This document shows positions 6,994 to 43,004 of a stretch of 64,000 nt of DNA, in pieces. Each line of letters starts with the position of its first letter. Position 1 is the first letter of the stretch. The notes under the pieces are model-generated. The model was not told the DNA's origin, did not search any database, and worked only from the letters and a program-made list of their open reading frames with translations. The stretch covers positions 19,671 through 83,670 of the forward strand of contig CAYMNK010000002.1 in NCBI GenBank assembly GCA_964391805.1, read 5' to 3'. A program made the translations under genes and the position numbers. The DNA comes from an uncultured Christensenellaceae bacterium (GTDB lineage Bacteria; Bacillota; Clostridia; Christensenellales; CAG-1252).

Positions 6994-7080
6994 CCCCTTT
7001 TTAAGAAATCTTTAATAAAATAAACCACCGTTTTTTGTTTGTATACAATTTAAGGTATCGATAACGCGCCATACCGATTT

Positions 7081-7159
7081 CCGTCCCGTCATACTGAGCG
7101 TAGCGTAAGCGAAGTCGAACTGCAAAGCAGTGCGAGGTGCAAACCGAGCAGTATCTTGG
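7081..7159 (-). repeat. Rep-1 mosaic intergenic repeat, copy e (reverse orientation)
   Basis: The reverse complement reads AAGATACTGC...CTGCTTTGCAGTTCGACTTCGCTTACGCTACGCTCAGTATGACGGGACGG. It shares modules with the copies at 7201, 16644, 23628, 32207 and 32338. Confidence 0.8.
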
Positions 7160-7200
7160 ACCGTAACGAGTAGTCGATTAAACAACATCCTTATTATTAA

Positions 7201-7275
7201 GGAATAAGATTCCGACACCTTTGGTGTCGCCCTTCGGGTTCGACTACAGTCTGTCGATTTCCGCTCAGAATGACA
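7201..7275 (+). repeat. Rep-1 mosaic intergenic repeat, copy a
   Basis: GGAATAAGATTCCGACACCTTTGGTGTCGCCCTTCGGGTTCGACTACAG..CCGCTCAGAATGACA. With copy e it forms a head-to-head inverted pair of about 195 bp. Confidence 0.8.
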
Positions 7276-7389
7276 TTTGATGGTGAGATCTTACGCATTT
7301 TTAGCTCAGTATGACGGCGGACGCACAGTATGACATTTGATGGTATAGTGCTATTCTCTGTTAGGTATGACGCTCAGAATGACAAAAAG

Positions 7390-7690: not shown

Positions 7691-7734
7691 GCAAGTGCGA
7701 GGACTTGCTTTGGCGGGCGTTTACTAAACGCCCC
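7691..7734 (+). repeat. Rep-2 unit: GCAAGTGCGAGGACTTGC hairpin + GGCGGGCGTTTACTAAACGCCCC palindrome
   Basis: Repeated directly at 7773-7815. The palindrome module recurs at 10687-10714 and 16749-16768. Confidence 0.8.
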
Positions 7735-7772: not shown

Positions 7773-7815
7773 GCAAGTGCGAGGACTTGCTTTGGCGGGC
7801 GATTACTAATCGCCC
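7773..7815 (+). repeat. Rep-2 unit, second direct copy
   Basis: GCAAGTGCGAGGACTTGCTTTGGCGGGCGATTACTAATCGCCC, 82 nt after the first copy. Confidence 0.8.
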
Positions 7816-8116
7816 AATTTTATGATATATTGCCGTATTTTGTGTAAAAAGTGTGTGCTATAAAATATTCTTTTTTCAAGGAATTAGATCCTTCGACGAT
7901 CTCAGTATGACCTATATATAACGCACGCCTTGTGTATTCCTTTGGCATATGTTTCTTCTGTTGATTGTCATTTTAATTCTTTCTGAATTTATTATACCAC
8001 ATTCTTTCGCTCAGTATGACATATATATACGTAGTATGATTGCTAACGAAATTAATCCAACATGTTTAAGTAGGATCTAACGATGCAATCTTTTGGTATC
8101 TATTCGCTATTATTTA

Positions 8117-10553: not shown

Positions 10554-10598
10554 TTATTGTCCTTTTTTATATTATTGGTCGCTATCGCTAAGATTAAT

Positions 10599-10627
10599 GC
10601 GGATTTAGATACCGACGCTATGCGTCG
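10599..10627 (+). repeat. Rep-1 head module only (GCGGATTTAGATACCGACGC-TAT-GCGTCG)
   Basis: Matches the 5' part of copy b (16644), with a different loop. Confidence 0.7.
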
Positions 10628-10686
10628 TTTAATAATGTTTGCCTTTGACAAATGAAGCAATACTAAGCAATATTGCGAATGACGAA

Positions 10687-10714
10687 GGCGGGCGATTACT
10701 AATCGCCCCTACAT
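10687..10714 (+). repeat. Rep-2 palindrome module GGCGGGCGATTACTAATCGCCCCTACAT
   Basis: Identical core to 7794-7815 and shares the CCCCTACAT tail with 7731-7739. Confidence 0.8.
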
Positions 10715-16562: not shown

Positions 16563-16643
16563 TAGAATTCTCCTTAATGCGTAATACATTTGTTATAGGG
16601 TTAACAAATAGAAAATGCAACATTGTTGATATTATTTTTAAAA

Positions 16644-16714
16644 GCGGATTTAGATACCGACGCGTTGCGTCGCCCTATCGGGTTCGACTTCGCTTACGCT
16701 CCGCTCAGTATGAC
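16644..16714 (+). repeat. Rep-1 mosaic intergenic repeat, copy b (reference copy)
   Basis: GCGGATTTAGATACCGACGCGTTGCGTCGCCCTATCGGGTTCGACTTCGCTTACGCTCCGCTCAGTATGAC. Confidence 0.8.
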
Positions 16715-16875
16715 ATAATTGAAGCTATCGCTTACCTTGATATGGATAGGACGTTTACTAAACGCCCCTTGTATAATAAGTCAAGTGGTTTATGGGTGAA
16801 AAATATGATATAATATTTATAACATTGTGGATTGGTTAACGCCCCGATGCAATATTTAATTGTCGTTGTTCTTAC

Positions 16876-23581: not shown

Positions 23582-23622
23582 GCGGACGATACGATAAGTT
23601 TTTGCTATCGTATCCGCTTTTT
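23582..23622 (+). terminator. Intrinsic terminator after 22822..23499
   Basis: GCGGA(C)GATACGATA - loop - TATCGTATCCGC followed by TTTTT. Confidence 0.75.
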
Positions 23623-23627
23623 AATAA

Positions 23628-23820
23628 GGATTAAGATACTGCAAGGCAAGCCTTGCACTGCTTCGCAGTTCGACTACAGGACGGTGTCCTTCCGCTCAGT
23701 ATGACGGCGGACGAAGAATGGCATATATTTTATCCATAACATTGCGAAGCAATACATCATTTGCCGTAGGCAAGCATCATTCATCATTATGCAGAGCATA
23801 ACATCATTTACGAAGAAGAA
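23628..23820 (+). repeat. Composite inverted repeat, left arm (Rep-1 copy f at 23628-23712 + mini-hairpin array at 23731-23820)
   Basis: GGATTAAGATACTGCAAGGCAAGCCTTGCACTGCTTCGCAGTTCGACTACAG..CCGCTCAGTATGACGGCGGAC, then TATCCATAACATTGCGAAGCAATACATCATTTGCCGTAGGCAAGCATCATTCATCATTATGCAGAGCATAACATCATT. The reverse complement of 32041-32289 aligns to it. Confidence 0.8.
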
Positions 23821-23942: not shown

Positions 23943-26900
23943 CTATTCGGTATCTATTGTTTCGTCATCCGTTTTGTTATCGACTTCTATCAATTTTATA
24001 TCGTCAAAGTCGACGTCAAGTTCGTCAATGGATAACTCATTGGGGTTGACAATCGGCTTTTCTACGGTATTGACCGGTTTATATGCATCGCTCGTATCCC
24101 TCACTATTTTACGGAAGTTTACAGCTTTATTTCCGTTGCGTTTTTTGCGCCTCGAGGTTCCTGCCATTACGATAGACAATACGGCAACAAATACAAGCAC
24201 TACAAATCCAATAATTACGTAGTATGGCCAAACCTCTTTGGTACAGAGCATTATATAGTTAAATTCGTCGTCCGTAACAATTATGGTGCCCTCACCTACC
24301 TCAACTTCGAGCAATTCATAGGAACCGTCACTTCTAATCGCAACCGCATAAATCGGTACGTTAATCAAACTATCGTCAACCGATAATTCAACCGTAATTT
24401 CCTTAGTCGGCTGTTTACCGTTATCGCTTGTCAGCACGAACATTTGCTTATTATTGAGAAGCATTGCTTTTACTACAAGATATGAATTATCCTGTTTAAC
24501 CGAATCGTCCTCTGCCAAAACCTTATAAGTTATATTGTTTTCGGGGAATACGACGGTTAATTTACTCACTTCGGTAATTATTTCGAAGTTTGAATCCTCT
24601 TCGTCCCCCGAATAGGTAGGTGCTATATTATTAGTACCCTCTTTAGGATTATTCAGTATTACCGTATCGAATTTTACCGATAATTTACTCAATATTTCAT
24701 CGGAAACGGTATTACCATCTCTATCCTTGAAAACCAATTCACCTATTATGGTTGAACCGTTCTTAACGTAAGTTTTTTCTTTGATAGATACATGCAATTC
24801 AAACTTTTCTATCACAAACTCCACGCCGTCGGGATTTTCGACGGTTGCATTATTTCGGATAATTACGTTGAAATATTCGGTTACGACTTTTCCGCTTTTA
24901 TCCTCTGTAATATAGATTTTATCGGAGTTATTAAGATCGATTTTATATGTACCCACATCTTCGCCCGCCTCTCTTATCGCCGACGAATCCGCTCTTAGAG
25001 AATAACCCTCAGGCAACGGATACTCATCTATCTCTTTTACCGCAATGATCGGATCTATGCTAAGATAGGTTTTCTTAATGCTATCATCGGCTAATACCAA
25101 AACCACATTAGTTTTAATAACGGTATAGTATGAAGTACCGCGCGAAGAAACGATATAATTATCCGTTACATTCTTTCCGTCGCCGTCATTAATTCTAATA
25201 TTTCCCAATGTAATCTTGTATTTAGCAAAAACCGTAGTTTCGGTGTTTGCTACCTGTTCTAAACCAAATCCACCCGATAGATAGAAACCGTCGTTAAGGA
25301 TATAATCCTTAAAAAGTCCGTTATTATCCGCTTTTATCGAATATCTCTTAACATCTGCGCTCAATGCGTATAACGCACTAAAATCATCGGTATATTTGGC
25401 GTTTTCACAGTCGATTGGAGTAATAAAGATTTCTTTTTTGTTAATTGTGAAACTTTGCTTAATGTAAGTAATCCTATAATTTGAGGATATATCCGCACCG
25501 CTACTATCGATAACGGCTATATTACTCAAATCTATTGCGTAACTTCCGACATCGTCAACAGACTTTTTACTCTCTCTTATGGGGCTATTAGCACCGTCAT
25601 ATTTGAGACTATCACCCTGAATTAACGAACCGCTAACGACTTCGCAGACCATTATAGGATCAACTTCGCCGTAATACTTGGACAAACCGTCGGTGACGCT
25701 AACCGTAATGGCACGACGTGTAATAGCATAGAACGAATTACTGTTATCGAGATTAATTTCGAAACAGTCCGATAGTAGCACTTTTTGTCCACTTGAAAGA
25801 CTAATTTCGGTATCTGCAACGGCAAGACTTCCTAAAATAATTCTATAAGAACCTACTTTATTTACACCAGCACCGCCTTCACGAGCAAGCATACCGGTAA
25901 ATACTTCATTACCTTGATAAAGAGATGACAGCAACTCATCCGAATATGTATATGTCAAATTATCGGCATCCTTATAGAACGGATCGAATTCACGCGTAAA
26001 TGAAGACGGAATAACTGTAATAATCTTCTTATCGATATTAGCATAAACGTCTTCAAACACCACATTATAACGTGAATAAACCGAATTAAGTTTATCCTTA
26101 TATGTATCGTTTAAATCACTTATTTGATCCAAAATGTATAGATATGCGCTCTTATCGTCCGACAAATCGCATATTTGAGGTAATTTTATACGCTTGTCAC
26201 CAATCAAACTGTATAGAGATACATGCGTTTTACCCGTCGAGACGGTATCGAATTCGGCAACGATATTACCGAAAAGTGCTTTAATTTCGTCAACAATGCC
26301 GTCGACCAAACTTCCGTCATCGATAACGTTAATTGACAAGTTGATTTTAATAGAAGCGCTTGAAGTATTGTCAAATACTTTATCCAATGCATTTATTCCG
26401 CTAACCGAAATATTTGACTGTTTTATACTAAATTCGATAAAACGTCCCTCTTTAATCATAGAATCGGTCAAAATCCCCATGGAATCGGTTAAACTTAAAC
26501 CGAATCTATCCGAATAGACAGTTGCATCACTATAACTATAGGGCAATTCTCCATCGAGAACTCTATAATCATAAAGTGTTCTTAAAAAGACTAATTCGAC
26601 CGCATACTCTCCGACTTCGGTAGGAATAGCCGTCATTCTCGTATACTTTCCGTCAACCTTGGTATAGTAACGAATGGCATAATCAACGTTTTTTATCAAA
26701 TTGACCGAAACGGAATTGTCCAATGCATTAAAGAAATCTAATGTATATACTAATTCCTTACCGAAATACGAATAATTGTATTTTTCTAAACCGGCATTGA
26801 TGTTTTTATTACCGTCGTTGAAGTTCCAACCAAGTTGCACAGGCTCGTTAATTGAGTAATAGTACTTCGCCGTTGTCTCGGAGTTTATGAACTCGTTCGA

Positions 26901-29900
26901 ACCACTAACAACAGTCGAACCTGAATTACTCGATAAACGGTATTGGTAAATATTCGAATCGAATTCGACTTGAATGCAATATTTACCCACACTCGAGGGA
27001 TATACTCCACCCGCTATAACGCTTTCGGTACCGTTTTCGACACGTAATAAGATTACGTTATGAGAAATATCGATTTTTTTACTGCCCGAAAGGAAATAAA
27101 TATCAAAAGGTTTTTGCTCGCCGTCATAAGCGAAACTCTCGAATCGACCTTCAAAAACTATGTTCACGGATTTTGCACTACTTACGGTAAAAGGTATATC
27201 TACATAAGAATTGACATCTAAACAATTACCAAGAACTGTTCCGTCACTTTCCTTGCCGTTAACCAAAGTAAAAAGTTTATAGATATCGCTTTCGTCTTCG
27301 CCAAACGTCACTCTAAGGACGTAATCACCAGATGTGAACATATAATGACCTAAATCGTACGAACCCTCGATACTTATAGGCTCATAAACTATTTGAGAAG
27401 AACCCGATAATCTACGATGATAGCGAATGGTGATTCCGTTACATAATGCACTATAGCTAGACGGATACACGTCACTCAATAAAAATCTATTACCGTCCTC
27501 GTCCGTTGCACTTATTGATAAGTCGGATAATCCTACTGCATAGGTATTACCATAATAATGCTCGGCAAAAGCATTCTCCTCTATGCTTTCAAGCGTCAGT
27601 GCATTGACAGAAATGGGCAGTGGTGTAATTCTGTATTCGGTCACAAAAGAATAATCCGACTTTTTAGATGCATAGTACATATCTGAACTATACTCTACCC
27701 CCGATTTAGCTCCGACCAAAGTGAAGATAACATTATCGATAACCATATTATCTTTCAAAGCATCCTTTACCGCTAAATTGCGTAAGTATTTAGCAGGAAG
27801 CACCGACTTATCGACCGCTGTATCGCAAACGATGGAATTGATATTACCGCTAAAAAGCGAAGAATCAAAATCATTGAGCGAGATATATGACAAAATCATA
27901 TCGTCGGTTAACTGAGAAGTCGAATCATAGCCGTTTGTCTTATAGAAAACGAACTCGGGAGATACCTCGACGCCCGACAAGCGATAATTTGCTTTATCTT
28001 CTACAGGAATTCGTACTACAACTGTAAGCGAAAGTTTTTCAACCGTTATTATCGAGCTAAAAATACTGCGTGACGCAAGATTGTCGCGTGTAAAATTACT
28101 ACTCTCTATATTCGGCTCATCGGTATAAATACCGTATTTTTGGTAATTATTGTCTAACGAATAATTGAAATAGATGGCAATTACATACTTGCCGGCATTG
28201 ACGGGGTTATTCGATGTAAACAAAGAATAGTCTCCGTTATTAATCGATGAATAAAGTAAAGAATATTCCGAAGGTGCAATTTCCACAGGACGATTTCCTA
28301 CTTTAAAGGTTACATCAAAGTCCTTTCCTTCGGGATTATTGTCATAGACAAGGTCTTTGGTTTGAGCATTTTGCTTAACGCTGAACTCCGCAGTAAGCTC
28401 CATTGTGTTAATTGTGAATGTATAAATAATTTTATCACCCGATTTTGCACCGAAAAAGCTGTTATCGCTATTAACGGCAAACACGGCACGATAAGTTGCG
28501 GGTAAAATAGGATAGTCGCAAACGCTCCATATTCCGTCTTCCACCGATTCAGAGTGACGATCGAGCATTTCATAGTAGAACGAATAATTCAAGCCTGATA
28601 TATCGCTATCGGACAAACCGTCAAATGAAGTCTTGACGAGTTGAATATTACCGTCATAGTCGACAAAATACTGTCCGTCTCTATATACGGCACCGTCTAA
28701 TGACAATGTAATACAATCCAAAGAGCTAACCGACTTCTTAACATAATCAAGTAAGAAAATATCACCTGCAAATAATCCAAACTCGGGATAATCTGCATTA
28801 ATTTCAACAAAAACGGTGTATTCGCCTATATGCTCCAACAAATCGGAACGGACAACTTGATAATTAAATTCGTTGTCCTTTTTAAAATATTTAACGGTAT
28901 AATCGGAAAATGCCACATTACCGCCGAAATCAATATTAATCTCGTCGTTTTGAACCTTAACGGAAACATTTGATTGAACGGACAAAACCGTAAAATCGTA
29001 GAAAAGTTTATATCCGTCGGTAATGACGGTATCTCCGTTGGTCCATTTATGGTTTTCGTTATCGATATTAAAGGTAACAACCGCTTTATATTCGCCCGAA
29101 TCGATTGCATCGCTAACATTCCAATCGGAATCATAATAGGTAACCGAATAATATGCACTCGGAATATCCGCCATTGTGCTGTCTTTAATCGATTTTACGA
29201 TTGCGGGACGCTTATTAGAATAATCGAGAATGGCACAGTTCCCGCCACCATCTACAACATAATCCGAATTGAAAGATATATTCAATTTGGGAATGATTTG
29301 AAAATCATATTCCACGGTATTATTATAAGAATCGATCACATATTCAGCATCACTTGCACCGAAAACGCTCGCACCACCAATATCACCGTCACTAATGTCA
29401 ATATAAAATCTTACCTTGTACCTTGCAACCTCGGTGGGATATTCTCCGTACGGTAATTCGGTCAAATTAGTATTATCGGTATAACGGAAATATTTGGTTT
29501 CTGATTGAATAATCTCTATATCGCGATTAAAAACAGGATTGATCAATATCGGGTTGCCTTGGTAAACAATAGAATAACCGCCATCGTTACTGACTGCATT
29601 ATTGACAAAAGATACCGAATAAGGTTTAGAATAAACGGTATAAGGAAGGTCTATAAAATCGCCCGAAGATATTCCGTAAGCATCGATATCGGCATTGAAA
29701 AGGAAGCGTACATAATAATCGCCTTCGGTACGAGGGGCAACGTCGTTAACGGTATTCCCGACTATATATTTGACGTCGTATTTGCCTTCGAATACGCTTT
29801 CGTTTACAATTTTACCGCTATAATCTACGCTGTAATAGTCATTTGCAAGTGTATCGGAATTGAGATATCTACCTTCGTATATTTTAGTATCACTTAACGA

Positions 29901-30617
29901 AACAAGATCTTTAAGCGAATTAACTATGCTAAATTCCCCTATAAACTCACTCCTTGTGTGCACATCGGCATTCTCAAGATCTCTAAGCATAGTGACAACG
30001 ATTCGGTATAATCCGGGATCGGTGGCTTTATCGGTAACGGAAGCAATTCCGTTATCAATCGAATACAAAGCGATACTATAATCGACATCTTTATTCAATT
30101 TAACACCCGAAGCGTATACCGCGGTATCATTTAATGCTTTCGAATACCAATCTGCTCCCGAATAATCGATATTTTGAGAAAGCGAATAAACAACTGCGAA
30201 ATTCTCGCCGACAATTTCGTAGCTATATGCGTTGAGCACAGTACCTTCTTTTATTTTATCGGTGCCGAAAAAGTAGTTATTAGCGCTATATTGGGAGTTT
30301 ACTATAGCTTTAACAGCATATTTACCAAGTGCTGTCGGAGCGACGGTACCTAATCGATTACCGAGTGCATCGTAATAAACAAGATCACACCAAGAAGAAT
30401 CAAAATCAGCCTTACTCCATTCTTTATTATCCAAGCTACTCCAAAAAGTTACCTCGGCATGTGTACCGGAGCCGTATACAGAACCGCACGAAAGACTTAT
30501 ATCCGCTTCGAGATACTTATCTATTTCGAGAGCTTCTGCAGAGAGAAAAACTCCGCTAAGGCTTAACGCTACAACGGTAAACACCAATATTAATAAACAA
30601 AGCTTGGATCTAAACAT
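23943..30617 (-). CDS. Giant (2,224 aa) surface adhesin-like protein: signal peptide, many Ig-like repeats, MBG-type (YGxxDP) repeats, C-terminal TM anchor + acidic cytoplasmic tail
   Basis: Start set to ATG 30617 (MFRSKLCLLILVFTVVALSLSGVFLSAEA) with GGGGAG upstream. MBG-like units include SKYYGEVDPIMVCEVVSGSLIQGDSL...VGSYAI (~25611-25700) and KKTYLSIDPIIAVKE...VGTYKI (~25021-25080). TM PYYVIIGFVVLVFVAVLSIVMAG (~24159-24233) followed by RRKKRNGNK. Confidence 0.85.
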   Translation of the reverse strand: MFRSKLCLLILVFTVVALSLSGVFLSAEALEIDKYLEADISLSCGSVYGSGTHAEVTFWSSLDNKEWSKADFDSSWCDLVYYDALGNRLGTVAPTALGKYAVKAIVNSQYSANNYFFGTDKIKEGTVLNAYSYEIVGENFAVVYSLSQNIDYSGADWYSKALNDTAVYASGVKLNKDVDYSIALYSIDNGIASVTDKATDPGLYRIVVTMLRDLENADVHTRSEFIGEFSIVNSLKDLVSLSDTKIYEGRYLNSDTLANDYYSVDYSGKIVNESVFEGKYDVKYIVGNTVNDVAPRTEGDYYVRFLFNADIDAYGISSGDFIDLPYTVYSKPYSVSFVNNAVSNDGGYSIVYQGNPILINPVFNRDIEIIQSETKYFRYTDNTNLTELPYGEYPTEVARYKVRFYIDISDGDIGGASVFGASDAEYVIDSYNNTVEYDFQIIPKLNISFNSDYVVDGGGNCAILDYSNKRPAIVKSIKDSTMADIPSAYYSVTYYDSDWNVSDAIDSGEYKAVVTFNIDNENHKWTNGDTVITDGYKLFYDFTVLSVQSNVSVKVQNDEINIDFGGNVAFSDYTVKYFKKDNEFNYQVVRSDLLEHIGEYTVFVEINADYPEFGLFAGDIFLLDYVKKSVSSLDCITLSLDGAVYRDGQYFVDYDGNIQLVKTSFDGLSDSDISGLNYSFYYEMLDRHSESVEDGIWSVCDYPILPATYRAVFAVNSDNSFFGAKSGDKIIYTFTINTMELTAEFSVKQNAQTKDLVYDNNPEGKDFDVTFKVGNRPVEIAPSEYSLLYSSINNGDYSLFTSNNPVNAGKYVIAIYFNYSLDNNYQKYGIYTDEPNIESSNFTRDNLASRSIFSSIITVEKLSLTVVVRIPVEDKANYRLSGVEVSPEFVFYKTNGYDSTSQLTDDMILSYISLNDFDSSLFSGNINSIVCDTAVDKSVLPAKYLRNLAVKDALKDNMVIDNVIFTLVGAKSGVEYSSDMYYASKKSDYSFVTEYRITPLPISVNALTLESIEENAFAEHYYGNTYAVGLSDLSISATDEDGNRFLLSDVYPSSYSALCNGITIRYHRRLSGSSQIVYEPISIEGSYDLGHYMFTSGDYVLRVTFGEDESDIYKLFTLVNGKESDGTVLGNCLDVNSYVDIPFTVSSAKSVNIVFEGRFESFAYDGEQKPFDIYFLSGSKKIDISHNVILLRVENGTESVIAGGVYPSSVGKYCIQVEFDSNIYQYRLSSNSGSTVVSGSNEFINSETTAKYYYSINEPVQLGWNFNDGNKNINAGLEKYNYSYFGKELVYTLDFFNALDNSVSVNLIKNVDYAIRYYTKVDGKYTRMTAIPTEVGEYAVELVFLRTLYDYRVLDGELPYSYSDATVYSDRFGLSLTDSMGILTDSMIKEGRFIEFSIKQSNISVSGINALDKVFDNTSSASIKINLSINVIDDGSLVDGIVDEIKALFGNIVAEFDTVSTGKTHVSLYSLIGDKRIKLPQICDLSDDKSAYLYILDQISDLNDTYKDKLNSVYSRYNVVFEDVYANIDKKIITVIPSSFTREFDPFYKDADNLTYTYSDELLSSLYQGNEVFTGMLAREGGAGVNKVGSYRIILGSLAVADTEISLSSGQKVLLSDCFEINLDNSNSFYAITRRAITVSVTDGLSKYYGEVDPIMVCEVVSGSLIQGDSLKYDGANSPIRESKKSVDDVGSYAIDLSNIAVIDSSGADISSNYRITYIKQSFTINKKEIFITPIDCENAKYTDDFSALYALSADVKRYSIKADNNGLFKDYILNDGFYLSGGFGLEQVANTETTVFAKYKITLGNIRINDGDGKNVTDNYIVSSRGTSYYTVIKTNVVLVLADDSIKKTYLSIDPIIAVKEIDEYPLPEGYSLRADSSAIREAGEDVGTYKIDLNNSDKIYITEDKSGKVVTEYFNVIIRNNATVENPDGVEFVIEKFELHVSIKEKTYVKNGSTIIGELVFKDRDGNTVSDEILSKLSVKFDTVILNNPKEGTNNIAPTYSGDEEDSNFEIITEVSKLTVVFPENNITYKVLAEDDSVKQDNSYLVVKAMLLNNKQMFVLTSDNGKQPTKEITVELSVDDSLINVPIYAVAIRSDGSYELLEVEVGEGTIIVTDDEFNYIMLCTKEVWPYYVIIGFVVLVFVAVLSIVMAGTSRRKKRNGNKAVNFRKIVRDTSDAYKPVNTVEKPIVNPNELSIDELDVDFDDIKLIEVDNKTDDETIDTE

Positions 30618-30750
30618 ATTCACTCCCCGCAAATTGAAAATGGATACAATTTGCATAGTAATATATTTTATTTTAACACGAGCAAGCAATTTTTGCAATA
30701 AAGAAGTAAAATAAATAATATATATTTATATTAAATATTTAATAAGATAT

Positions 30751-30778: not shown

Positions 30779-31282
30779 TTATGAAACAGGAACGTCGTTT
30801 TTATACAAAACGCCCTCTTTATAAGACCAAAGGTTGCCTTCCTTGAGATAATATAGAAGATCGAGTCGCCACTCAGCAGAACCCGAAATAGAATTACCAG
30901 ACTCATCTTTAGGTACATAACGGCGAAATACAATGTAATAACCATCATTTTTATCAGAGCTTTCCGTTGCGGACGGTGCTCTATACGTTTCATTATTCGA
31001 ATACTGCTCACACGATTTTACACTGTCACCCAAAACCGATTGACAAGCCTCGTATAGCGAACCGTATGTGCTAAATCCCGAGTTCTTCTCAACCAAAACA
31101 GACTGAACCGAGTTATACGCCGTTTCAATTGCAGTTTGCTGAGCCTTTTCATTGGCTCTCTTCGTGAAAAAAGATGCACTTATACCTACAAGTGTACACA
31201 ATATTGCCAAAATTGCTATAGAAACCACAAGCTCCACCAATGTGAAACCTCTTCGATTTGACATTTTTTTCACAGACTTCAT
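30779..31282 (-). CDS. Type IV major pilin (prepilin, 167 aa)
   Basis: MKSVKKMSNRRG|FTLVELVVSIAILAILCTLVGISASFF shows the canonical prepilin leader, Gly-1/Phe+1/Glu+5 and a hydrophobic alpha1-N. A Cys pair sits in the head (EACQSVLGDSVKSCEQ). The track ORF start at 31465 adds 61 unsupported residues. Confidence 0.88.
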   Translation of the reverse strand: MKSVKKMSNRRGFTLVELVVSIAILAILCTLVGISASFFTKRANEKAQQTAIETAYNSVQSVLVEKNSGFSTYGSLYEACQSVLGDSVKSCEQYSNNETYRAPSATESSDKNDGYYIVFRRYVPKDESGNSISGSAEWRLDLLYYLKEGNLWSYKEGVLYKNDVPVS

Positions 31283-31288
31283 AAAATT

Positions 31289-31318
31289 ATTATACATTTT
31301 AAGGATATCTTTTGTCAA
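31289..31318 (-). promoter_or_regulatory. Consensus promoter TTGACA-18-TATAAT, 6 nt upstream of the pilin ATG
   Basis: Minus strand: TTGACA (31318-31313), 18-nt spacer, TATAAT (31294-31289), AATTTT, then ATG 31282. Confidence 0.65.
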
Positions 31319-31337
31319 CGTTGTTAAAAATAAATAT

Positions 31338-32039
31338 ATGAAACTTAATGAAACATTACTATCCATAGTATTTCTTATACTTATGTTAATAGGCGGTATT
31401 CCAAAAAATGCAATTACAACAGTCGAAACGGAACCGCTCGAATCAATTGATGAAAATACCGACACTTGTAACGATACTATTATAGATTATTATAGCGAAG
31501 ACATTAACAATAATACATTGTTCGAGATATTCGGAAACACAAAGATAATACCCGACGGGGAATTAAATATCAACCTATTATTGGAATCCACAGAAATAAT
31601 AAAAATCGAAGAATTCGCCCTTCCTTATAACAATCTTGGCTATGTGATACAAGAGATTATCTATCATAAGGCAAAAATCGATATTGACGGCAAAGTCACA
31701 AGTGTGGAAGTTCAAGGGACAAAAGAGAGAGCAAAACTAACTTTTACTCTGACAGTTGACCTTCACAAAAAGAACTTTCTAACTAAACTAATAGGAATAG
31801 ACGATTCCGAATTGACGGCGACAATAGAACTCGATACCGATTTAATAAATAAGTCGGTTAATTATACGATAACGGCAAACGAAATCAGCGTTTCGACATT
31901 AATAAGCAATATCGCATGTAAATATGTTTTCGGCGCAAACGATACCGAAGAATTAGTCAAGACGATTACAAATAAACTCTTTTGGGGAATAGGAACGGCA
32001 AGCGAGTTTGGGGATACGGAGATAATATATAATAAATGA
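31338..32039 (+). CDS. Secreted hypothetical protein (233 aa), divergent from the pilin gene
   Basis: Start set to ATG 31338 (MKLNETLLSIVFLILMLIGGIPKNAITT, signal-like). The upstream part of track ORF 31152.. overlaps the pilin gene antisense. No family recognised. Confidence 0.6.
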   Translation: MKLNETLLSIVFLILMLIGGIPKNAITTVETEPLESIDENTDTCNDTIIDYYSEDINNNTLFEIFGNTKIIPDGELNINLLLESTEIIKIEEFALPYNNLGYVIQEIIYHKAKIDIDGKVTSVEVQGTKERAKLTFTLTVDLHKKNFLTKLIGIDDSELTATIELDTDLINKSVNYTITANEISVSTLISNIACKYVFGANDTEELVKTITNKLFWGIGTASEFGDTEIIYNK

Positions 32040-32040
32040 T

Positions 32041-32289
32041 GTTATGCTATGCATAATGATGTTACTTCGTATGAAGTTTGCCTTACGGCAAATGATGTAT
32101 TGCTACGCAATATTGTGGATAAACATATGTCATAGTGAGAAGAAGACTGACGCTAAAGCGAATGATGTTTTGCTAAGCAATAATTATGAGCGAATAATGT
32201 CTTCATCCGCCGTCCCGTCATACTGCGCGGAAGACAAAGTCTGTAGTCGAACTGCGTAGCAGCGACGCTTAGCGTCGGTATCTGATTCC
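32041..32289 (-). repeat. Composite inverted repeat, right arm (mini-hairpin array at 32041-32200 + Rep-1 copy d at 32207-32289)
   Basis: The reverse complement reads GGAATCAGATACCGACGCTAAGCGTCGCTGCTACGCAGTTCGACTACAG..CCGCGCAGTATGACGGGACGG ... TATCCACAATATTGCGTAGCAATACATCATTTGCCGTAAGGCAAA ... CATCATTATGCATAGCATAAC. It matches 23628-23820 apart from an insertion of about 75 nt. Confidence 0.8.
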
Positions 32290-32337
32290 ATATTAGAAAA
32301 ACTGATACAATATCATAAGCTTATCGTTACCGTCCGC

Positions 32338-32421
32338 AAGATACCAAATTGTTATACAATTTGATTCTCACTTCGTTCGAATTTCGACTTCGCTAACGCT
32401 CCGCTCAGTATGACGGCGGAC
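32338..32421 (+). repeat. Rep-1 mosaic intergenic repeat, copy g
   Basis: AAGATAC-CAAATTG-TTATA-CAATTTG-...TTCGACTTCGCTAACGCTCCGCTCAGTATGACGGCGGAC. With copy d it forms a head-to-head inverted pair of about 215 bp. Confidence 0.75.
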
Positions 32422-32494
32422 TGACTTTTGTAATATATTATTATACTTTTCGCAATTTTTTTTTGCTTTTTTTGTGCTTTTTTCGCAATATTAT

Positions 32495-34168
32495 TTACAC
32501 TAATGTAAATACGGTGCGAACGTATTCCTCTACCGAAGTATCGCCTTCTTTGATGCGTTTACGGAGGTTTTCATCCATAAACTCCATTCCGTGAGCGGAC
32601 GCATACGCACGAATTTCGTCTGTACTTGCGTTTTTGGTAATCATTTGTCTAAGCTCAGTATTAAGTTCAAGCACCTCGTGAACGGCAAAACGTCCGGAAT
32701 ATCCGGTATAGTTACAAGATGAACAGCCTACAGGGAAATATGCTTGATCGATATCGTTTGAATTAATGAGTTTTTTCTCGTCTAAACTGAGTTGTTTAAG
32801 TTTCTTACACTTAGGACACAGTTTCTTTACCAATCTTTGAGCTAATACGCCGTTAACCGCCGCGGCGGTAAGGTAAGGTGCGATTCCCATATCGATAAGA
32901 CGGGCGATTGTTGCACATGCGTCATTGGTGTGCAAGGTGGACAATACCAAGTGACCGGTAATAGCCGCTCTCATGGCAATTTCCGCAGTTTCGTAGTCAC
33001 GAATCTCACCGACCATTACTATATCGGGGTCTTGACGAAGTATAGATCTAAGAGCAGTTGCAAAGGTCATACCCGCTTTTTCGTTGATTTGAACTTGATT
33101 GATGCCCATAACGCGTTTTTCGACAGGGTCCTCTACTGTGGTGATATTATGGGTAGGTTTGTTGAGTTGACTTAAAACGGTGTATAGCGTGGTAGATTTA
33201 CCGCTTCCGGTAGGTCCTGTAACGAGTACTACTCCGTTGGGGGAATTACAAATATGATCGAACACTTTGAAGTTTTCTTCGGTCATACCGAGTTCTTTTA
33301 ATCCTATCTGCTTACCTAAGGAAGTACCGAGTAAACGCAAAACGGCTTTTTCACCGTATACGGTAGGCAATGTAGATACACGAATATCGATGGTCACGCC
33401 TTCGAAGGTATAGTCGAATCTACCATCTAACGGAATACGCTTTTCGGCAATATTCATATTGGACAATATCTTCAAACGAGTAATCAACGAACGATGGGTA
33501 GAAGGAGTAAGTCTCATATACTCTTGTAAATCACCGTCCAATCTCATTCTTATAATAACTACGTCCTTGAACGGCTCAATATGGATATCCGATGCTTTAC
33601 GCAAATACGCTTGTTGAACAAGGGTGTTCAGCAACTTAACTATAGGTGCACTGTCTACACGCGAATCTATATCGTTGGTTTGGTTAGAATCTTGCTCTTC
33701 GTCCTCTAATTCGACCGCAATATTTTGCGCGCTTATATTGGCATAATACTTTTCAATGGCATCCTCTATAGATTTCTTGGTGGCAAGGGTGTAAAAAACA
33801 TCTCTACCCGATGAAGCTTTTACATCGAGTTCAATCTCCATATTGGTAGGATCTCTCGTGATTATCTCGAGTCTACCGTCCTCTCTGATCTTATAAGGGA
33901 TAATGTTATGCTTCCTTGCTATCTTTTCGGGAACAAGCTTGATAACATCGCTATCCGATATAAAAATATTACCTTCTATAACTTGCAACCCCATTCTTTC
34001 GCCCAAGGCACTCAAAATATTGATTTCGGGAGTTACGTTCATAGAGATTAGCGTTTCGGATATAGACATACGTGGATTTTGTTCGTTCAATTCACGAGCC
34101 TGTTTGAGTTGTTCGGGAGTTACGAAACCCTTTTGAAGTAGTATTTGACCAAATTTTAGTTTACTCAT
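32495..34168 (-). CDS. pilB: Type IV pilus assembly ATPase PilB (GspE family)
   Basis: Walker A GPTGSGKSTT, Asp/His boxes, Walker B DPDIVMVGEIRD, tetracysteine CPKCKK...CSSCNYTGYSGR, and a GspE-N-type N-terminal domain. Confidence 0.95.
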   Translation of the reverse strand: MSKLKFGQILLQKGFVTPEQLKQARELNEQNPRMSISETLISMNVTPEINILSALGERMGLQVIEGNIFISDSDVIKLVPEKIARKHNIIPYKIREDGRLEIITRDPTNMEIELDVKASSGRDVFYTLATKKSIEDAIEKYYANISAQNIAVELEDEEQDSNQTNDIDSRVDSAPIVKLLNTLVQQAYLRKASDIHIEPFKDVVIIRMRLDGDLQEYMRLTPSTHRSLITRLKILSNMNIAEKRIPLDGRFDYTFEGVTIDIRVSTLPTVYGEKAVLRLLGTSLGKQIGLKELGMTEENFKVFDHICNSPNGVVLVTGPTGSGKSTTLYTVLSQLNKPTHNITTVEDPVEKRVMGINQVQINEKAGMTFATALRSILRQDPDIVMVGEIRDYETAEIAMRAAITGHLVLSTLHTNDACATIARLIDMGIAPYLTAAAVNGVLAQRLVKKLCPKCKKLKQLSLDEKKLINSNDIDQAYFPVGCSSCNYTGYSGRFAVHEVLELNTELRQMITKNASTDEIRAYASAHGMEFMDENLRKRIKEGDTSVEEYVRTVFTLV

Positions 34169-34264: not shown

Positions 34265-35020
34265 TTATATGGTAAATAGCAGACTTATTATTTCGTTTCC
34301 ACAAAATACCGCTATCATCCACCCTATACATAGACACGGACCTAATGGCATTACCTTGGTTTTGTTAGGTCTAACCATCATTATTATTCCTATAATGCCA
34401 GCTAATACTATTCCTAAGAAACCGCCTAATAATACCAATTTCCAACCTAACAACAAGCCTACTGCAAGTGATAGTTTGATATCGCCTAAACCTATTGCTC
34501 CGTGTGTTACAAGGGTAATTATAATTAGCGGAAGACTTAGAGCAACCATTCCTAAAAGATATTCATACCATTTGACGTCGCCCATGAAGAAAGATAAAAT
34601 AAATCTTATCAAGCCTAACACGATTATCAATAAAACGGTACCGTTAGGAATTTCCATTATATCGAGGTCGATCGAGGCAACCACTATAAGCACACTAAAT
34701 AGAATAGCGAATATTACTAAATCATATATCGCATTTTTAAATAATATATACGCAAGAAGCCATAAAATCGCGTTTAGTAATTCTACTATAGGATAGCGTG
34801 GCGATATTCTTTCTTTACAATATCTACATCTACCGCCTAAGAATATATAACTAAATAGCGGTATCATATCGTACCATGCCAATTTATTTTTGCATTCGGT
34901 GCAATATGAAGTTGCACTCTTAAAAAAGATTTTTCTCGGCACTCTATAGATAACCACATTTAGAAAACTACCTATAACTAAGCCGTATATGAATATCAAT
35001 GCTCCGTATAAGTACTCCAT
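34265..35020 (-). CDS. pilD: Prepilin peptidase / N-methyltransferase PilD (A24 family)
   Basis: N-terminal Cys motifs YCTECKNKL...CRYCKERISPRYP. Polytopic. Catalytic-Asp contexts ASIDLDIMEIP and AIGLGDIKL. Confidence 0.93.
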   Translation of the reverse strand: MEYLYGALIFIYGLVIGSFLNVVIYRVPRKIFFKSATSYCTECKNKLAWYDMIPLFSYIFLGGRCRYCKERISPRYPIVELLNAILWLLAYILFKNAIYDLVIFAILFSVLIVVASIDLDIMEIPNGTVLLIIVLGLIRFILSFFMGDVKWYEYLLGMVALSLPLIIITLVTHGAIGLGDIKLSLAVGLLLGWKLVLLGGFLGIVLAGIIGIIMMVRPNKTKVMPLGPCLCIGWMIAVFCGNEIISLLFTI

Positions 35021-36105: not shown

Positions 36106-39100
36106 TCAATTAATCGCTATTCCTCTATAATACCAGTTCATACTCGAAACAGGTATGTCGTCGGGGGAGTCCCAAAATTCGGCAAGTTTATAACTTGAGC
36201 GATTGTCGCCTATCGAAGAAGTCGTTTCACCGCTCCTCAAATTGGTATATTTGAAAACGGTGTCGGACATGTCGGGTACCGTCTTTATGTAATTAATCTT
36301 ACTTGACAGTGAGTTATCCATTTCGAAATTGTCGCATACATACATTCCGTAAATATCCCAATGGTTGTTGCCCTCGCCGTTGTAATTGGCGGTCACCTTG
36401 AATACATTTCTCGCATCGGGATCTCCGTACGAATACCCGGAAGGCATATACACATACGCGGCGGTTTGGAAGTCCTGAACCTCGAAACTGATATTACCGC
36501 CCGTACCGACTATAAATAACCTCGGTTGAAGTTGGTATTGACCGCTACTCTTGGCTTTTTCGTCCATAACGGGATTACCGGACTCATCATAATAGGTTTT
36601 TTCGTCAAATCCGCTACCTGTAGTTTGAACATATCTCACACCGCCGAAAACATTGTAGGTTGCATCGGATTGTGTCCATTGAGAAATCCAATTATTATAA
36701 TCGCCGTATTCGTCATGAAGCCAGTTTGTAAAACCGTTACCCACAATCTTGATATCGGTATCCTCTTGTAAATACAAGAAAACTCTACCATTACCTATGA
36801 TATTCAAGCAACTGTCCTTATCCTGTTCCCATATCATCTTAGCACTCTTGGGCAATACGATATGTAGATCCTTTGCCTTGCTTCCGTACGGATCGGTGGG
36901 ATCTTCGCAGGTGAAGAAGGTCCAAGTAACATCATTAGACACCGATAGATTTGCTGTCCAGTTACCTCCGCCGTTACCCCAGAACCAACGACCTTGAGAG
37001 TCTTTTTCCTTAGTCATGTTGTCCGCTTTACGATATGTTTCGTCGAATACCGATTCACTTACCACTCCGCTATTGAAGAATACTAAGCCGACAGGACGCT
37101 GATTAAGCGAATAAGAGGTAGGAATAACCCAATTTTCGTTCCAACCTACGTATCTGATAAGATTATCGAGCATATCTCCGCTCGGGAAAGAACTATTGAC
37201 CACAAACGTTCGTCTTGTGATAATCATCATATCACTGCTACCGAGGTCAGATAAAACGGTTGAAACGTTGGAGGCACTTAACCTATAATACTCGGCATCT
37301 GATTTACTGGCAAACTCTAAACCCAAATAGTCGGACGAAGGTGTATAGAGCGAGGATAAATTGCTGAAGAAGTTTTGAGCGTTGCTATACAAACTCTTAC
37401 CTACACTCAATGCTTCTCCGTTCACCCAGTCCCAGAAATCTAAATCGTTGAATCGCTTAATATCCTCCGCACATGCTTCCAACGAGTCGATCGAACCGCC
37501 GAGTTTCTTTTCAGTAACGGTCAATACGTTATCGGCGTTATTATTCAAAGCTACGGCATCGCCTGCCGTTGTTTCGGTCGGCAATACCCACTTCAATGGG
37601 ATTGCTTGAGGATACCAATTATCGGTATTTAAACTTTTGAGAGGTAAATCCTCTTTATTTACTAATAGCTCATCCAACTGTGTTACTTTGTTAACGGTAT
37701 TGATTGCAATCGAGGTCAAGGGTGTTTTACGCTTGATGTCCATAGAAGACAAACTGTCCCACTCCAATCCGCCAAAGCCTACATTGGTTCCCGTTAGAAT
37801 CGGTAAATAGGTAAATCCACTTGATTCAATCGGATCGATTTTTACTAAAGCGTCTGCAAGTGATGATGAATTGCTAAGTCCGACCGAACAACTATCTACC
37901 TGAGTCGTAGAGCCATAAATCAGGTTGTTTACGTTATGATTACATAACGTATAATTCTTATCTCTTTCGCTCTTATCGATAACGCCCGACTTAGTATTGT
38001 GTCCTGCATTATCCTTATACTCGAAGCTTTGATAACTTGCAGTCTTACTCATAGAATAACCGTCGATTGATGCCTGTAAGGAGCAATAACCGTTATTTGT
38101 GTATCCCTTAGCTTGTAAAATACCGCCACAAGTATAAGTTGAACTCATATTAACCCAGTCATCCGTCCAACCCCAACCTTTGGTATCTCGCCAAGTTATT
38201 GTTTCTTGAATATTTAATTCAATTTTACCGTTATTGGTAAGCGTGCCTTTGCAATATATATTCAAACGAACAGTTGAAGACGATCCTATTGTCATATTTC
38301 CGCTTACGTATACGCCCTTAAACCAAGTATGAGCATGCTCTCTCGCGGTGGTAAATTCACTTCCGATGTAACTATCACCGCTTAAGGTCAATGCGTTAGC
38401 TACGTTTACGACGGTATAAGCGGTCAATTCGACATTAGACGTCGATATCGCACTCTCAATCGCTGTATTATACAATTCCAAACTACCGCCGAAATTATAG
38501 TACTTGGCATAGTTTCTAAATACCGTACTGTTAGTAGCGGTATATGACGAAAAATCAAAACTTTCGCCTAACTTAGAATTCGATATATATGCATTCTGAC
38601 TGGACCATAGCGTTATGTTAGAATAACACTCGACATTATCGAAATACAAGCCATAATTCGAACTTTCGTCTTTTTTGAGTCCTACATAGACCGAACCGAA
38701 TTTTGTACTGTATGCACTGTTTTGGGTATTATAGGTACCCTCTTGGGTGGAATAACAATGCTTAATAGTGCTTTTGTACCCCGATCCATAAAAGGTTGTA
38801 TATGTCGCATATACCCCTCTATCGGCATATAATGTCGAGCCGTTATATTTTTCATCCGCACCATTGAATATACAATTTCTCAAGAATGCTCGTCCGCCCA
38901 TTGAATTCGAAGATGCAACATAAACATTTGAAGAAAAATGTATATTTTTATTCGTATCATCAGTATATCCCTTGATACTAACGGGATTGTTTATAATGGT
39001 CGATTCGGTAATATCTGCACCTGTAGATAACACAACGTTACAAACAAGCAAAGACGCTTTTACATAACCGTAAAAATCGATATTCGACCGTGTTAATGCT

Positions 39101-42954: not shown

Positions 42955-43004
42955 CAATTTCTCCTGCTTAATTATGGTTTATCTATCCAATAGCAACACT
43001 TTAA

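Follow-up and report, generated by a model that had tools for sequence, protein, structure and literature searches.

What kind of element keeps the shape of its hairpins but not the sequence of which they are built? The question is raised by a short intergenic repeat, Rep-1, whose focal copy lies at 16644-16714 of a 64-kb stretch of DNA from an uncultured Christensenellaceae bacterium (the whole stretch is called the window here). An initial annotation had listed seven copies with a common framework and had compared them to repetitive extragenic palindromic sequences and bacterial interspersed mosaic elements (REP/BIME) or to miniature inverted-repeat transposable elements (MITEs). We found that the hairpin slots of Rep-1 preserve structure and not sequence. 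We consider it an evenly balanced proposition that Rep-1 is a REP/BIME-like repeat which acts as single-stranded DNA and is probably handled at the replication fork.

When 185,579 species genomes were scanned for GTTCGACT-N9-18-CGCTCAGTATGAC, at least 72 loci were obtained, and the family counts given below rest on these listed matches together with the window. With relaxed matching they comprise at least 170 hits (153 distinct copies) and at least 219 tails. In the orientation of the initial annotation, which is kept for the description of the anatomy, the unit consists of AGATAC, zero to two hairpins, GTTCGACT, zero or one hairpin and YCGCTCAGTATGAC. The core of about 27 nt forms three invariant blocks, (A/G)AGATAC, GTTCGACT(N)C and (T)YCGCTCAGTATGAC. 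Slot 1, between the first and second blocks, had been taken for the site of one hairpin; the slot is real, but in most copies it contains two, HP1 with a stem of 6-7 bp and HP2 with a stem of 3-4 bp (e.g. CCC-TATC-GGG or CTGC-TTC-GCAG). It is empty in minimal forms (loci L002, L009, L016, L020 and others), in which AGATAC is fused straight to GTTCGACT. Hairpin-less cores occur as well and keep the invariant blocks. Slot 2, between the second and third blocks, contains no hairpin or one (HP3). What had been read as two alternative versions of a middle block is in fact this third hairpin slot: ACAG-N10-TT corresponds to A-stem-loop-stem-T, and TCGCTTACGCT is a degenerate form with a stem of 2 bp.

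The ends of the unit also pair. ATAC of the head and GTAT of the tail form the helix P2, which is nearly invariant in the main set and encloses both hairpin slots in its loop. Compensatory pairs were found in window copy B and the metagenome-assembled genome (MAG) JBGVFH01 (ATTC/GAAT), in about eight copies of MAG CALVPX01 (ATCT/AGAT) and in related Pedobacter modules (ATTT/AAAT and ATTGC/GCAAT). Outside P2 there is an AG//GAC internal loop followed, in some lineages, by the outer stem P1, which encloses the entire unit and varies by lineage (CCGTCC/GGACGG, GTCCGC/GCGGAC, CGCCCG/CGGGCG, GTCCCATCCG/CGGATGGGAC and GCGCCGCTG/CAGCGGCGC). The GGCGGAC and GGGACGG ends, previously listed as part of the framework, are the 3' halves of this stem and pair with GTCCGC or CCGTCC on the upstream side of the head. 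Within the window, P1 amounts to 6 bp in copy F and to 4 bp in copy C; the remaining copies lack it, as do the 91 copies of MAG CAZLNZ01. 'Stem plus head' and 'tail plus stem' modules are nested two or three deep in MAG CAZUET01 and in the window.

Three other structural readings were tried and rejected. An alternative closing helix between upstream GCGGA and TCCGC of the tail has variants without covariation. In a tRNA-like reading, GTTCGACT is similar to a T loop and GCTCAGT to a D loop, but they come in the wrong order, their flanks do not make the corresponding stems and the position that follows the 'loop' is completely degenerate. The AG/GAC internal loop fits neither the kink-turn nor the loop E consensus.

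The evidence for conserved pairing comes from an alignment of 112 copies from other genomes and the window. HP1, HP2 and HP3 are 91-97% paired, and changes on both sides were observed in 20 of the 24 pairs. Double-change cells numbered 351, compared with 117 ± 16 in shuffles, and the covariation score of 0.329 (0.149 after shuffling) was reached by none of 500 shuffles, whereas slid-partner controls scored 0.06-0.11, i.e. three to five times lower. Slot 1 is occupied by 40 different stem arms and slot 2 by 16, and the slots fold at -6.3 kcal/mol as against -2.5 kcal/mol for shuffled sequences. The stems contained 1238 Watson-Crick pairs and only nine single mismatches (two G·T and one A·C among them), which argues against sequence decay. 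Both of these claims, retention of structure without sequence and the absence of simple decay, had been made in the initial annotation, and both stood.

A covariance model built from the 112 copies re-found the six full copies of the window at 39-85 bits (E 3e-8 to 3e-21). The motif CCGCTCAGTATGAC, with up to three mismatches, occurs 15 times in the window against 2.9 expected, and none of 100 shuffles reached 15. In all, the window has six full copies and a truncated one, together with at least five relatives that lack hairpins or consist of a tail alone:

7076-7168, minus strand: copy C, full unit (57 bits); HP1 imperfect; outer stem of 4 bp (GTCC/GGAC).

7195-7286, plus strand: copy B, full unit (69 bits); HP1 CGACACC-TTT-GGTGTCG; HP2 CCC-TTC-GGG.

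7302-7315, 7321-7334 and 7370-7383, plus strand: tail-only cluster of three pieces, GCTCAGTATGAC-GGCGGAC, GCACAGTATGAC and GCTCAGAATGAC.

7874-7923, plus strand: hairpin-less core AGATCC-TTCGAC-GAT-CTCAGTATGAC (16 bits, E=0.07).

7980-8032, plus strand: member of a hairpin-less subfamily 'Rep-1b', TTATAC-CACATTCT-TTCGCTCAGTATGAC (23 bits, E=8e-4); P2 kept.

10595-10627, plus strand: copy G, truncated, a weak match (11 bits); flank GCGGATTT, AGATAC head and HP1 CGACGC-TAT-GCGTCG only.

16640-16726, plus strand: copy A, the focal full unit (70.5 bits, E=4e-17); flank motif GCGGATTT; AGATAC 16652-16657; HP1 CGACGC-GTT-GCGTCG 16658-16672; HP2 CCC-TATC-GGG 16673-16682; GTTCGACT 16682-16689; slot 2 TCGCTTACGCTC in the degenerate form 16690-16701; tail CGCTCAGTATGAC 16702-16714.

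23622-23717, plus strand: copy D, full unit (66 bits); HP1 TGCAAGG-CAAG-CCTTGCA; HP2 CTGC-TTC-GCAG; HP3 AGGAC-GGT-GTCCT.

32205-32295, minus strand: copy E, full unit (85 bits); HP1 CGACGC-TAA-GCGTCG; HP2 CTGC-TAC-GCAG; HP3 AGAC-TTT-GTCT; head-to-head with copy F.

32327-32426, plus strand: copy F, full unit (39 bits); long slot 1, CAAATTG-TTATA-CAATTTG plus 18 nt.

All seven copies listed initially were therefore located and align on the proposed framework, the one at 10599-10627 with its head and first hairpin only; the tail-only pieces and the two hairpin-less cores had been missed. The six stems that had been given as perfect are correct, but that of copy C (7081-7159) is imperfect. In copy B, the head AGATTC and the tail CAGAATGAC represent the compensatory change in P2. 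Copies C and B lie head-to-head with their heads about 40 nt apart. In copy F, TTTCGACT replaces GTTCGACT and the outer stem is GTCCGC/GCGGAC, and in copy D the 3' flank GGCGGAC has no upstream partner. About 40 relatives of the 'Rep-1b' member were found in MAG CAZLNZ01. Every copy is within the first 32.5 kb of the window, the remainder of which is nearly filled by giant open reading frames (ORFs).

Which strand folds, and does it do so as DNA or as RNA? The loops are informative in this respect. Of 262 hairpins, 167 have triloops and 77 tetraloops. Read on the reverse strand, 97 of the 167 triloops are of the GNA type (GAA 50, GTA 26, GCA 19) versus one of 167 on the forward strand. The commonest HP3 on the reverse strand is GCGAAGC, which is said to be the classic hyperstable DNA mini-hairpin described by Hirao and colleagues. 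Folded as DNA, the reverse strand is better by about 1 kcal/mol than the forward strand. Between co-directional genes, 45 copies were antisense and seven sense in the orientation of the initial annotation, and the strand written there is the locally C-rich one in 117 of the 153 copies. The folding strand accordingly coincides, in about 76% of copies, with the strand that is G-rich and has the sense of the genes. The same holds for the window, where the plus strand has a negative GC skew throughout, the genes are on the minus strand and the solitary copies are all on the plus strand. The asymmetry of the strands, like the closing helices, had escaped the initial annotation. Loops and orientation indicate that the strand written down there is probably not the one that folds, and that the folding strand probably reads GTCATACTGAGCG-hairpin-AGTCGAAC-hairpins-GTATCT, the complement of that orientation. 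From the wobble-free stems, the loop asymmetry and the orientation bias taken together, we infer that the element would act as DNA, not RNA, and on one strand.

The same strand could be a structured RNA transcribed along with the genes, i.e. an mRNA stabiliser in 3' untranslated regions or operon spacers, a processing site, a protein platform or a small RNA gene. In favour of such an RNA are the architecture, a junction of several helices joined by invariant strands, and the covariation of the helices, P1 and P2 among them. The co-orientation of the folding strand with its flanking genes, GAAA as the commonest tetraloop on that strand and invariant bases that hold across phyla speak for it as well. 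We nevertheless regard it as unlikely. Natural RNAs use G·U pairs freely, and an RNA under structural selection would carry many of them on one strand, but there are at most two in about 1240 pairs on either strand. Triloops prevail over tetraloops, the copy number is very high, copies occur in tandem, nested and truncated forms, and their modules reassort. The copies also tend to sit just after intrinsic terminators, which argues against a role inside mRNAs: the focal copy lies between the rplS terminator and a NUDIX gene, antisense to both, the tail-only cluster 7302-7383 is directly downstream of the tRNA-Val terminator, and copy D begins right after a terminator-like hairpin and T run (about 23585-23625). 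With Rfam 15, only tRNAs reached the gathering score in the window, and nothing relevant appeared on either strand at E<=10 over copies B and C or at E<=1 over eight loci. The only other Rfam matches in the loci were tRNAs, rRNA and one unrelated Gut-1 RNA motif.

A further alternative would be that the repeat carries a catalytic nucleic acid, such as a small ribozyme that cleaves itself, with the invariant joining strands as its active site. Variable helices around invariant junction strands are a hallmark of small ribozymes, which often ride repeats. As no Rfam ribozyme family matched either strand even at E<=10, the hairpin-less cores retain the invariant blocks and wobble pairs are virtually absent, we hold this to be very improbable. 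The hammerhead was compared manually with both strands; the core reads CUGAGCG instead of CUGANGA and there is no stem I.

If Rep-1 acts as single-stranded DNA, the replication fork is a plausible place for it. Since the folding strand is mostly G-rich, it would be the template of the lagging strand, which is single-stranded at each passage of the fork. The folded element would then probably be copied, moved or recombined by an enzyme which reads the feet of the hairpins and the invariant single-stranded blocks. The best-known model for such an enzyme is, by analogy, a Y1 HUH nuclease of the kind associated with the insertion sequences IS200/IS605 or of the REP-associated tyrosine transposase (RAYT) kind. 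The HUH-type, replication-coupled mechanism, with template switching or recombination at the linkers, appears to be the most likely one because strand-specific hairpins beside invariant blocks, the lack of a duplication and the bias to the lagging-strand template match IS200/IS605 and REP/RAYT (PMC5027513, PMC6006769). IS608 and ISDra2 target the lagging-strand template (PMC6006769, PMC5027513). The invariant blocks may double as crossover or template-switch points at which hairpin modules are shuffled between copies, and a mosaic would result. The stems could stay perfect if only foldable copies propagated or if one arm were re-templated from the other.

No target-site duplication was detected at the P1 borders, where the mean flanking direct repeat was 0.85 nt, equal to that of permuted flanks; this is as expected for single-strand transposition. 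It bears also on the MITE likeness proposed initially. In that case P1 and AGATAC/GTATGAC would be imperfect terminal inverted repeats, and double-stranded DNA would be cut and pasted by a DDE transposase encoded elsewhere. The element is indeed small, intergenic and abundant, its ends show 5-10 bp of terminal inverted complementarity in MAGs CAZUET01, JBGVFH01, JAFQMR01 and JAZOWC01 and in window copy F, and public assemblies break at its copies. These inverted termini are lineage-specific, however, the largest set (the 91 CAZLNZ01 copies) being devoid of P1. The outermost bases are variable and the inner ones fixed, the reverse of what is seen in transposase-bound ends, and a double-stranded mechanism predicts neither the strand asymmetry of the loops nor the orientation bias. 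No transposase gene was found near the copies, nor anywhere in the 64-kb window. A classical MITE is thus rather improbable.

The distribution of the family is broad. The suspicion that the copies might be confined to the region around the focal copy is contradicted by their genome-wide occurrence in several MAGs. Among the matches listed, most loci belong to two uncultured Christensenellaceae MAGs: CAZLNZ01, with dozens of copies and tandem arrays, and CAZUET01, which is closest to the window. Further listed matches come from other Clostridia/Eubacteriales MAGs and from Candidatus Coproplasma, and a few from Pedobacter, Bacteroidales, Flavobacteriaceae, Acidobacteriaceae and one Patescibacteria bin. 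Minimal versions are present in Bacteroidota and Acidobacteriota. As many as 145 of the 153 copies are outside long ORFs, and no copies were found in viral contigs, plasmids or phages. In CAZLNZ01 loci (e.g. L004 450-2250, minus strand), Rep-1 cores lie within tandemly repeated units of 150-300 nt. A hairpin-less subfamily of this MAG reads TTGTCATTTGGATT...TTATTATACCACATTCCTTYCGCTCAGTATGAC, and its upstream part resembles a sigma-70-type promoter (TTGTCA, 18-19 nt, TATTRT) which faces the tail.

In a Pedobacter MAG (L002 3380-4230), a 294-bp unit is repeated three times in tandem, each repeat with a minimal Rep-1 core and related modules such as AGATTGCTTCGTACCTCGCAATGAC and GTCATTTCGAC...GAGAAATCT. 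This unit suggests a far wider 'AGAT-stem-TTCG..CTC-stem-ATGAC' superfamily in Bacteroidota.

The mosaic nature of the repeat, also claimed initially, is well documented in CAZLNZ01. In its 91 copies, the variants of flank, HP1, HP2, HP3 and tail are in linkage equilibrium and only immediate neighbours are linked. The family consequently does not consist of clonal subfamilies, and modules are exchanged. Turnover is visible within a species as well. Identical L19 proteins are encoded in the window, whose rplS-NUDIX spacer carries the focal copy, and in ten public contigs. The contigs that extend to the NUDIX side of the spacer all agree there in the half AGTCGAAC-HP2-HP1-head. Towards rplS, the third hairpin varies (GTGT/ACAC, GGTT/AACC, AGGAC/GTCCT or the degenerate form), as does the spelling of the tail between strains, and the tail is separated from the rplS terminator by 22 nt or, in other strains, by about 170 nt. 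In strains L073-L076, the outer 10 nt of the Rep-1 tail have given way to an adjoining copy of a different repeat, Rep-2. The breakpoint between strains is the conserved middle block (AGTCGAAC). Several public contigs end within the element, and the contig with pilB ends in copy F.

Rep-2 is a second repeat family, with two hairpins GCAAGTGCGAGGACTTGC-TTTGG-CGGGCGWTTACTAAWCGCCC; its copies in the window are at 7691-7733, 7773-7815, 10666-10708 and 16749-16767, and it was seen in no other species. Rep-1 fragments the assemblies of this species, since public short-read contigs (L077-L083) terminate within its copies.

A chromosomal site that serves the host could show some of these features. Rep-1, folded or as a duplex, would in that case be bound by a conserved protein of the host, for instance gyrase, a nucleoid protein or a factor of recombination or replication, as has been described for BIMEs, and its orientation bias would reflect a function polar with respect to replication. 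Such a site is in agreement with the 27 invariant bases common to several phyla, with an orientation bias that tracks GC skew and with the high density of tails, 219 in 594 kb, a density that applies to loci selected for the repeat. On the other hand, copy number and subfamilies differ widely among related genomes, the same locus differs between strains, and the copies are nested, truncated and clustered, with none in the second half of the window. All this is what selfish spread typically produces, and not what one sees in a functional site with regular spacing, and we therefore judge this explanation to be improbable.

Several observations weigh against the single-stranded DNA reading itself. 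The initial annotation had proposed a check for RAYT or IS200/IS605 genes; phmmer found no Y1/HUH match in 2942 ORFs (about 0.6 Mb), although this was a weak test, run with IS200, IS608 and Escherichia coli RAYT queries. No protein family recurs beside the copies in the listed loci, and the genes between outward-facing tails are ordinary ones (CBM26, DUF2804, DAP dehydrogenase). No precise insertion or pair with an empty site was found in the compared contigs, so that mobility itself is presumed. A metagenome scan with the NUDIX protein brought up no empty site; the relatives that it detected were all 38-52% identical. The copies share descent, so the counts of loops and pairs are not independent events. 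Replication direction was deduced from local GC skew in stretches of only 8-20 kb, and in discordant regions 14 copies agree with GC skew and nine with gene direction, so that replication and transcription bias are inseparable. Finally, REP hairpins are conserved in sequence within a family, whereas here the hairpins vary, the linkers are fixed and 27 bases are invariant across phyla, which is unusual for REPs or MITEs.

How does Rep-1 compare with known systems? It behaves like REP/BIME and like the ends of IS200/IS605 but, on the tests run, probably belongs to neither. The resemblance to the REP/BIME of Enterobacteria and Pseudomonas (RAYT/TnpA-REP), which the initial annotation had pointed out, is that of elements which work alike and are built differently. 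Both are short intergenic palindromic repeats of high copy number, single, in inverted pairs or in mosaic clusters mixed with other motifs. Both are found mostly between co-directional or convergent genes and downstream of genes, and both are without a target-site duplication. In either case recognition is presumed to require a hairpin that stands on a short single-stranded 'foot'. The head-to-head pairs at 7076-7286 and 32205-32426 are examples in the window. REPs are, however, defined as conserved, imperfect palindromes of 20-40 bp with the tag GTAG or CGTC at their foot (PMC3733652, PMC6006769), the palindrome with its 5' tag being the conserved part (PMC3733652). In Rep-1 no GTAG/CGTC tag is present at a fixed position beside any of the three hairpins, the palindromes are perfect and free in sequence, the linkers are invariant, three hairpins and closing helices make up about 90 nt, and the hosts are Clostridia. 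The ends of IS200/IS605 and palindrome-associated transposable elements (PATEs) similarly have subterminal hairpins beside short conserved single-stranded motifs, no target-site duplication and one active strand biased to the lagging-strand template (PMC5027513, PMC6006769). In contrast to them, Rep-1 has no associated tnpA or tnpB in the loci examined, the ends of its unit pair (P2, P1), whereas PATEs are without terminal inverted repeats, its hairpin sequences are not conserved, it is not known to have a parent insertion sequence and no cleavage or target tetranucleotide was identified.

Other likenesses are more limited. The atypical REP-like hairpins with a CnGA foot near class 3 TnpA-Y1 genes (PMC6006769, Table S1) share with Rep-1 a single-stranded CTGAG/CCGAG foot 5' of a GC-rich hairpin (on the folding strand of Rep-1, CTGAGCG precedes the third hairpin) and occur in up to hundreds of copies. 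Their hairpin is conserved (CCGCGACC-GTNA-GGGAGCGG) and their hosts belong to other phyla, whereas the hairpins of Rep-1 vary. None of the REP-like sequences of that table could be aligned with Rep-1. BOX of Streptococcus pneumoniae is a modular intergenic repeat of a Firmicute with variable internal modules between pairable fixed ends, but its modules boxA, boxB and boxC are conserved in sequence and 45-59 nt long, whereas the internal modules of Rep-1 are hairpins of free sequence; the analogy is one of design only. Integron attC sites are recognised, as is presumed for Rep-1, as folded single-stranded DNA in which structure and unpaired bases are conserved, whereas the sequence is otherwise largely free and the apex variable. 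Rep-1 differs from attC, a single long imperfect hairpin with R''/R' and L''/L' boxes in cassette arrays beside intI, in its three separate hairpins and in the lack of an RYYYAAC/GTTRRRY box pair (it has a single GTT, in GTTCGACT, without an AAC partner). Its tandem arrays are without cassette ORFs, its copies are dispersed in both orientations, there is no integrase in their vicinity and no recombinase is present in the window. The Gut-1 RNA motif (RF01706) shares variable hairpins, a fixed linker (GUGAAAU) and the gut-Clostridia setting. Its match at L033 5603-5686 (minus strand; 56 bits, above the gathering score) has three variable hairpins and is 260 nt from two Rep-1 copies. The linker and architecture are different, and the Gut-1 model gives no match to Rep-1; Gut-1 itself may be one more repeat at the level of DNA instead of an RNA gene.

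No account of the family or of its motifs, searched for as DNA, RNA and translated strings, was found in the open-access literature, and published REP surveys (PMC3733652, PMC6006769) list no Clostridia families. Rep-1 is thus apparently an undescribed and unnamed family. What is unusual in it is the inverted logic of conservation, the invariance of its core bases across phyla and the rapid exchange of modules. These bases, in Clostridia, Bacteroidota, Acidobacteriota and possibly Patescibacteria, might be the substrate or active core of an undescribed system. This could be a new class of element mobile as single-stranded DNA, with an unrecognised nuclease or recombinase and with slots that would owe their diversity to the templated formation of palindromes or to an exchange of cassettes at the linkers; or it could be a catalytic or ligand-binding nucleic acid borne on a repeat. 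Either would fall within the wider superfamily also seen in Pedobacter. We consider such a system doubtful.

The surroundings of the copies are those of an ordinary bacterial chromosome (about 40% GC) with rplS, ffh, alr, type IV pilus genes and a cluster of tRNAs. Immediately internal to Rep-1 copies D and E, the two arms of an inverted repeat, each of about 90 nt and 93-97% identical (23729-23810 and 32033-32123, with small hairpins between (A)CATCATT linkers), flank an 8.3-kb segment which encodes a 2251-aa ORF (23943-30698, minus strand) and a prepilin-like ORF (30779-31465, minus strand). The bracketed segment could be invertible or mobile. Two giant ORFs on the minus strand, 36106-42957 (2283 aa) and 47251-63801 (5516 aa, with many internal repeats at multiples of 69 nt), adjoin the type IV pilus genes pilB (32495-34168) and that for prepilin peptidase (34265-35020).

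Repeats of the REP type are barely documented in gut Clostridia. If the single-stranded DNA reading is right, common uncultured Clostridia of the human and animal gut bear hundreds of copies of an element with fixed single-stranded linkers and free hairpins. Its hairpin modules swap between copies and strains over very short evolutionary times, and its invariant blocks point to a putative DNA-processing enzyme. The repeats also break short-read assemblies and create spurious ORFs, and a model of the family aids MAG assembly, annotation and strain typing. On the same reading, Rep-1 would offer a natural system for studying how palindromes arise and stay perfect and how the single-stranded DNA of the replication fork is exploited.

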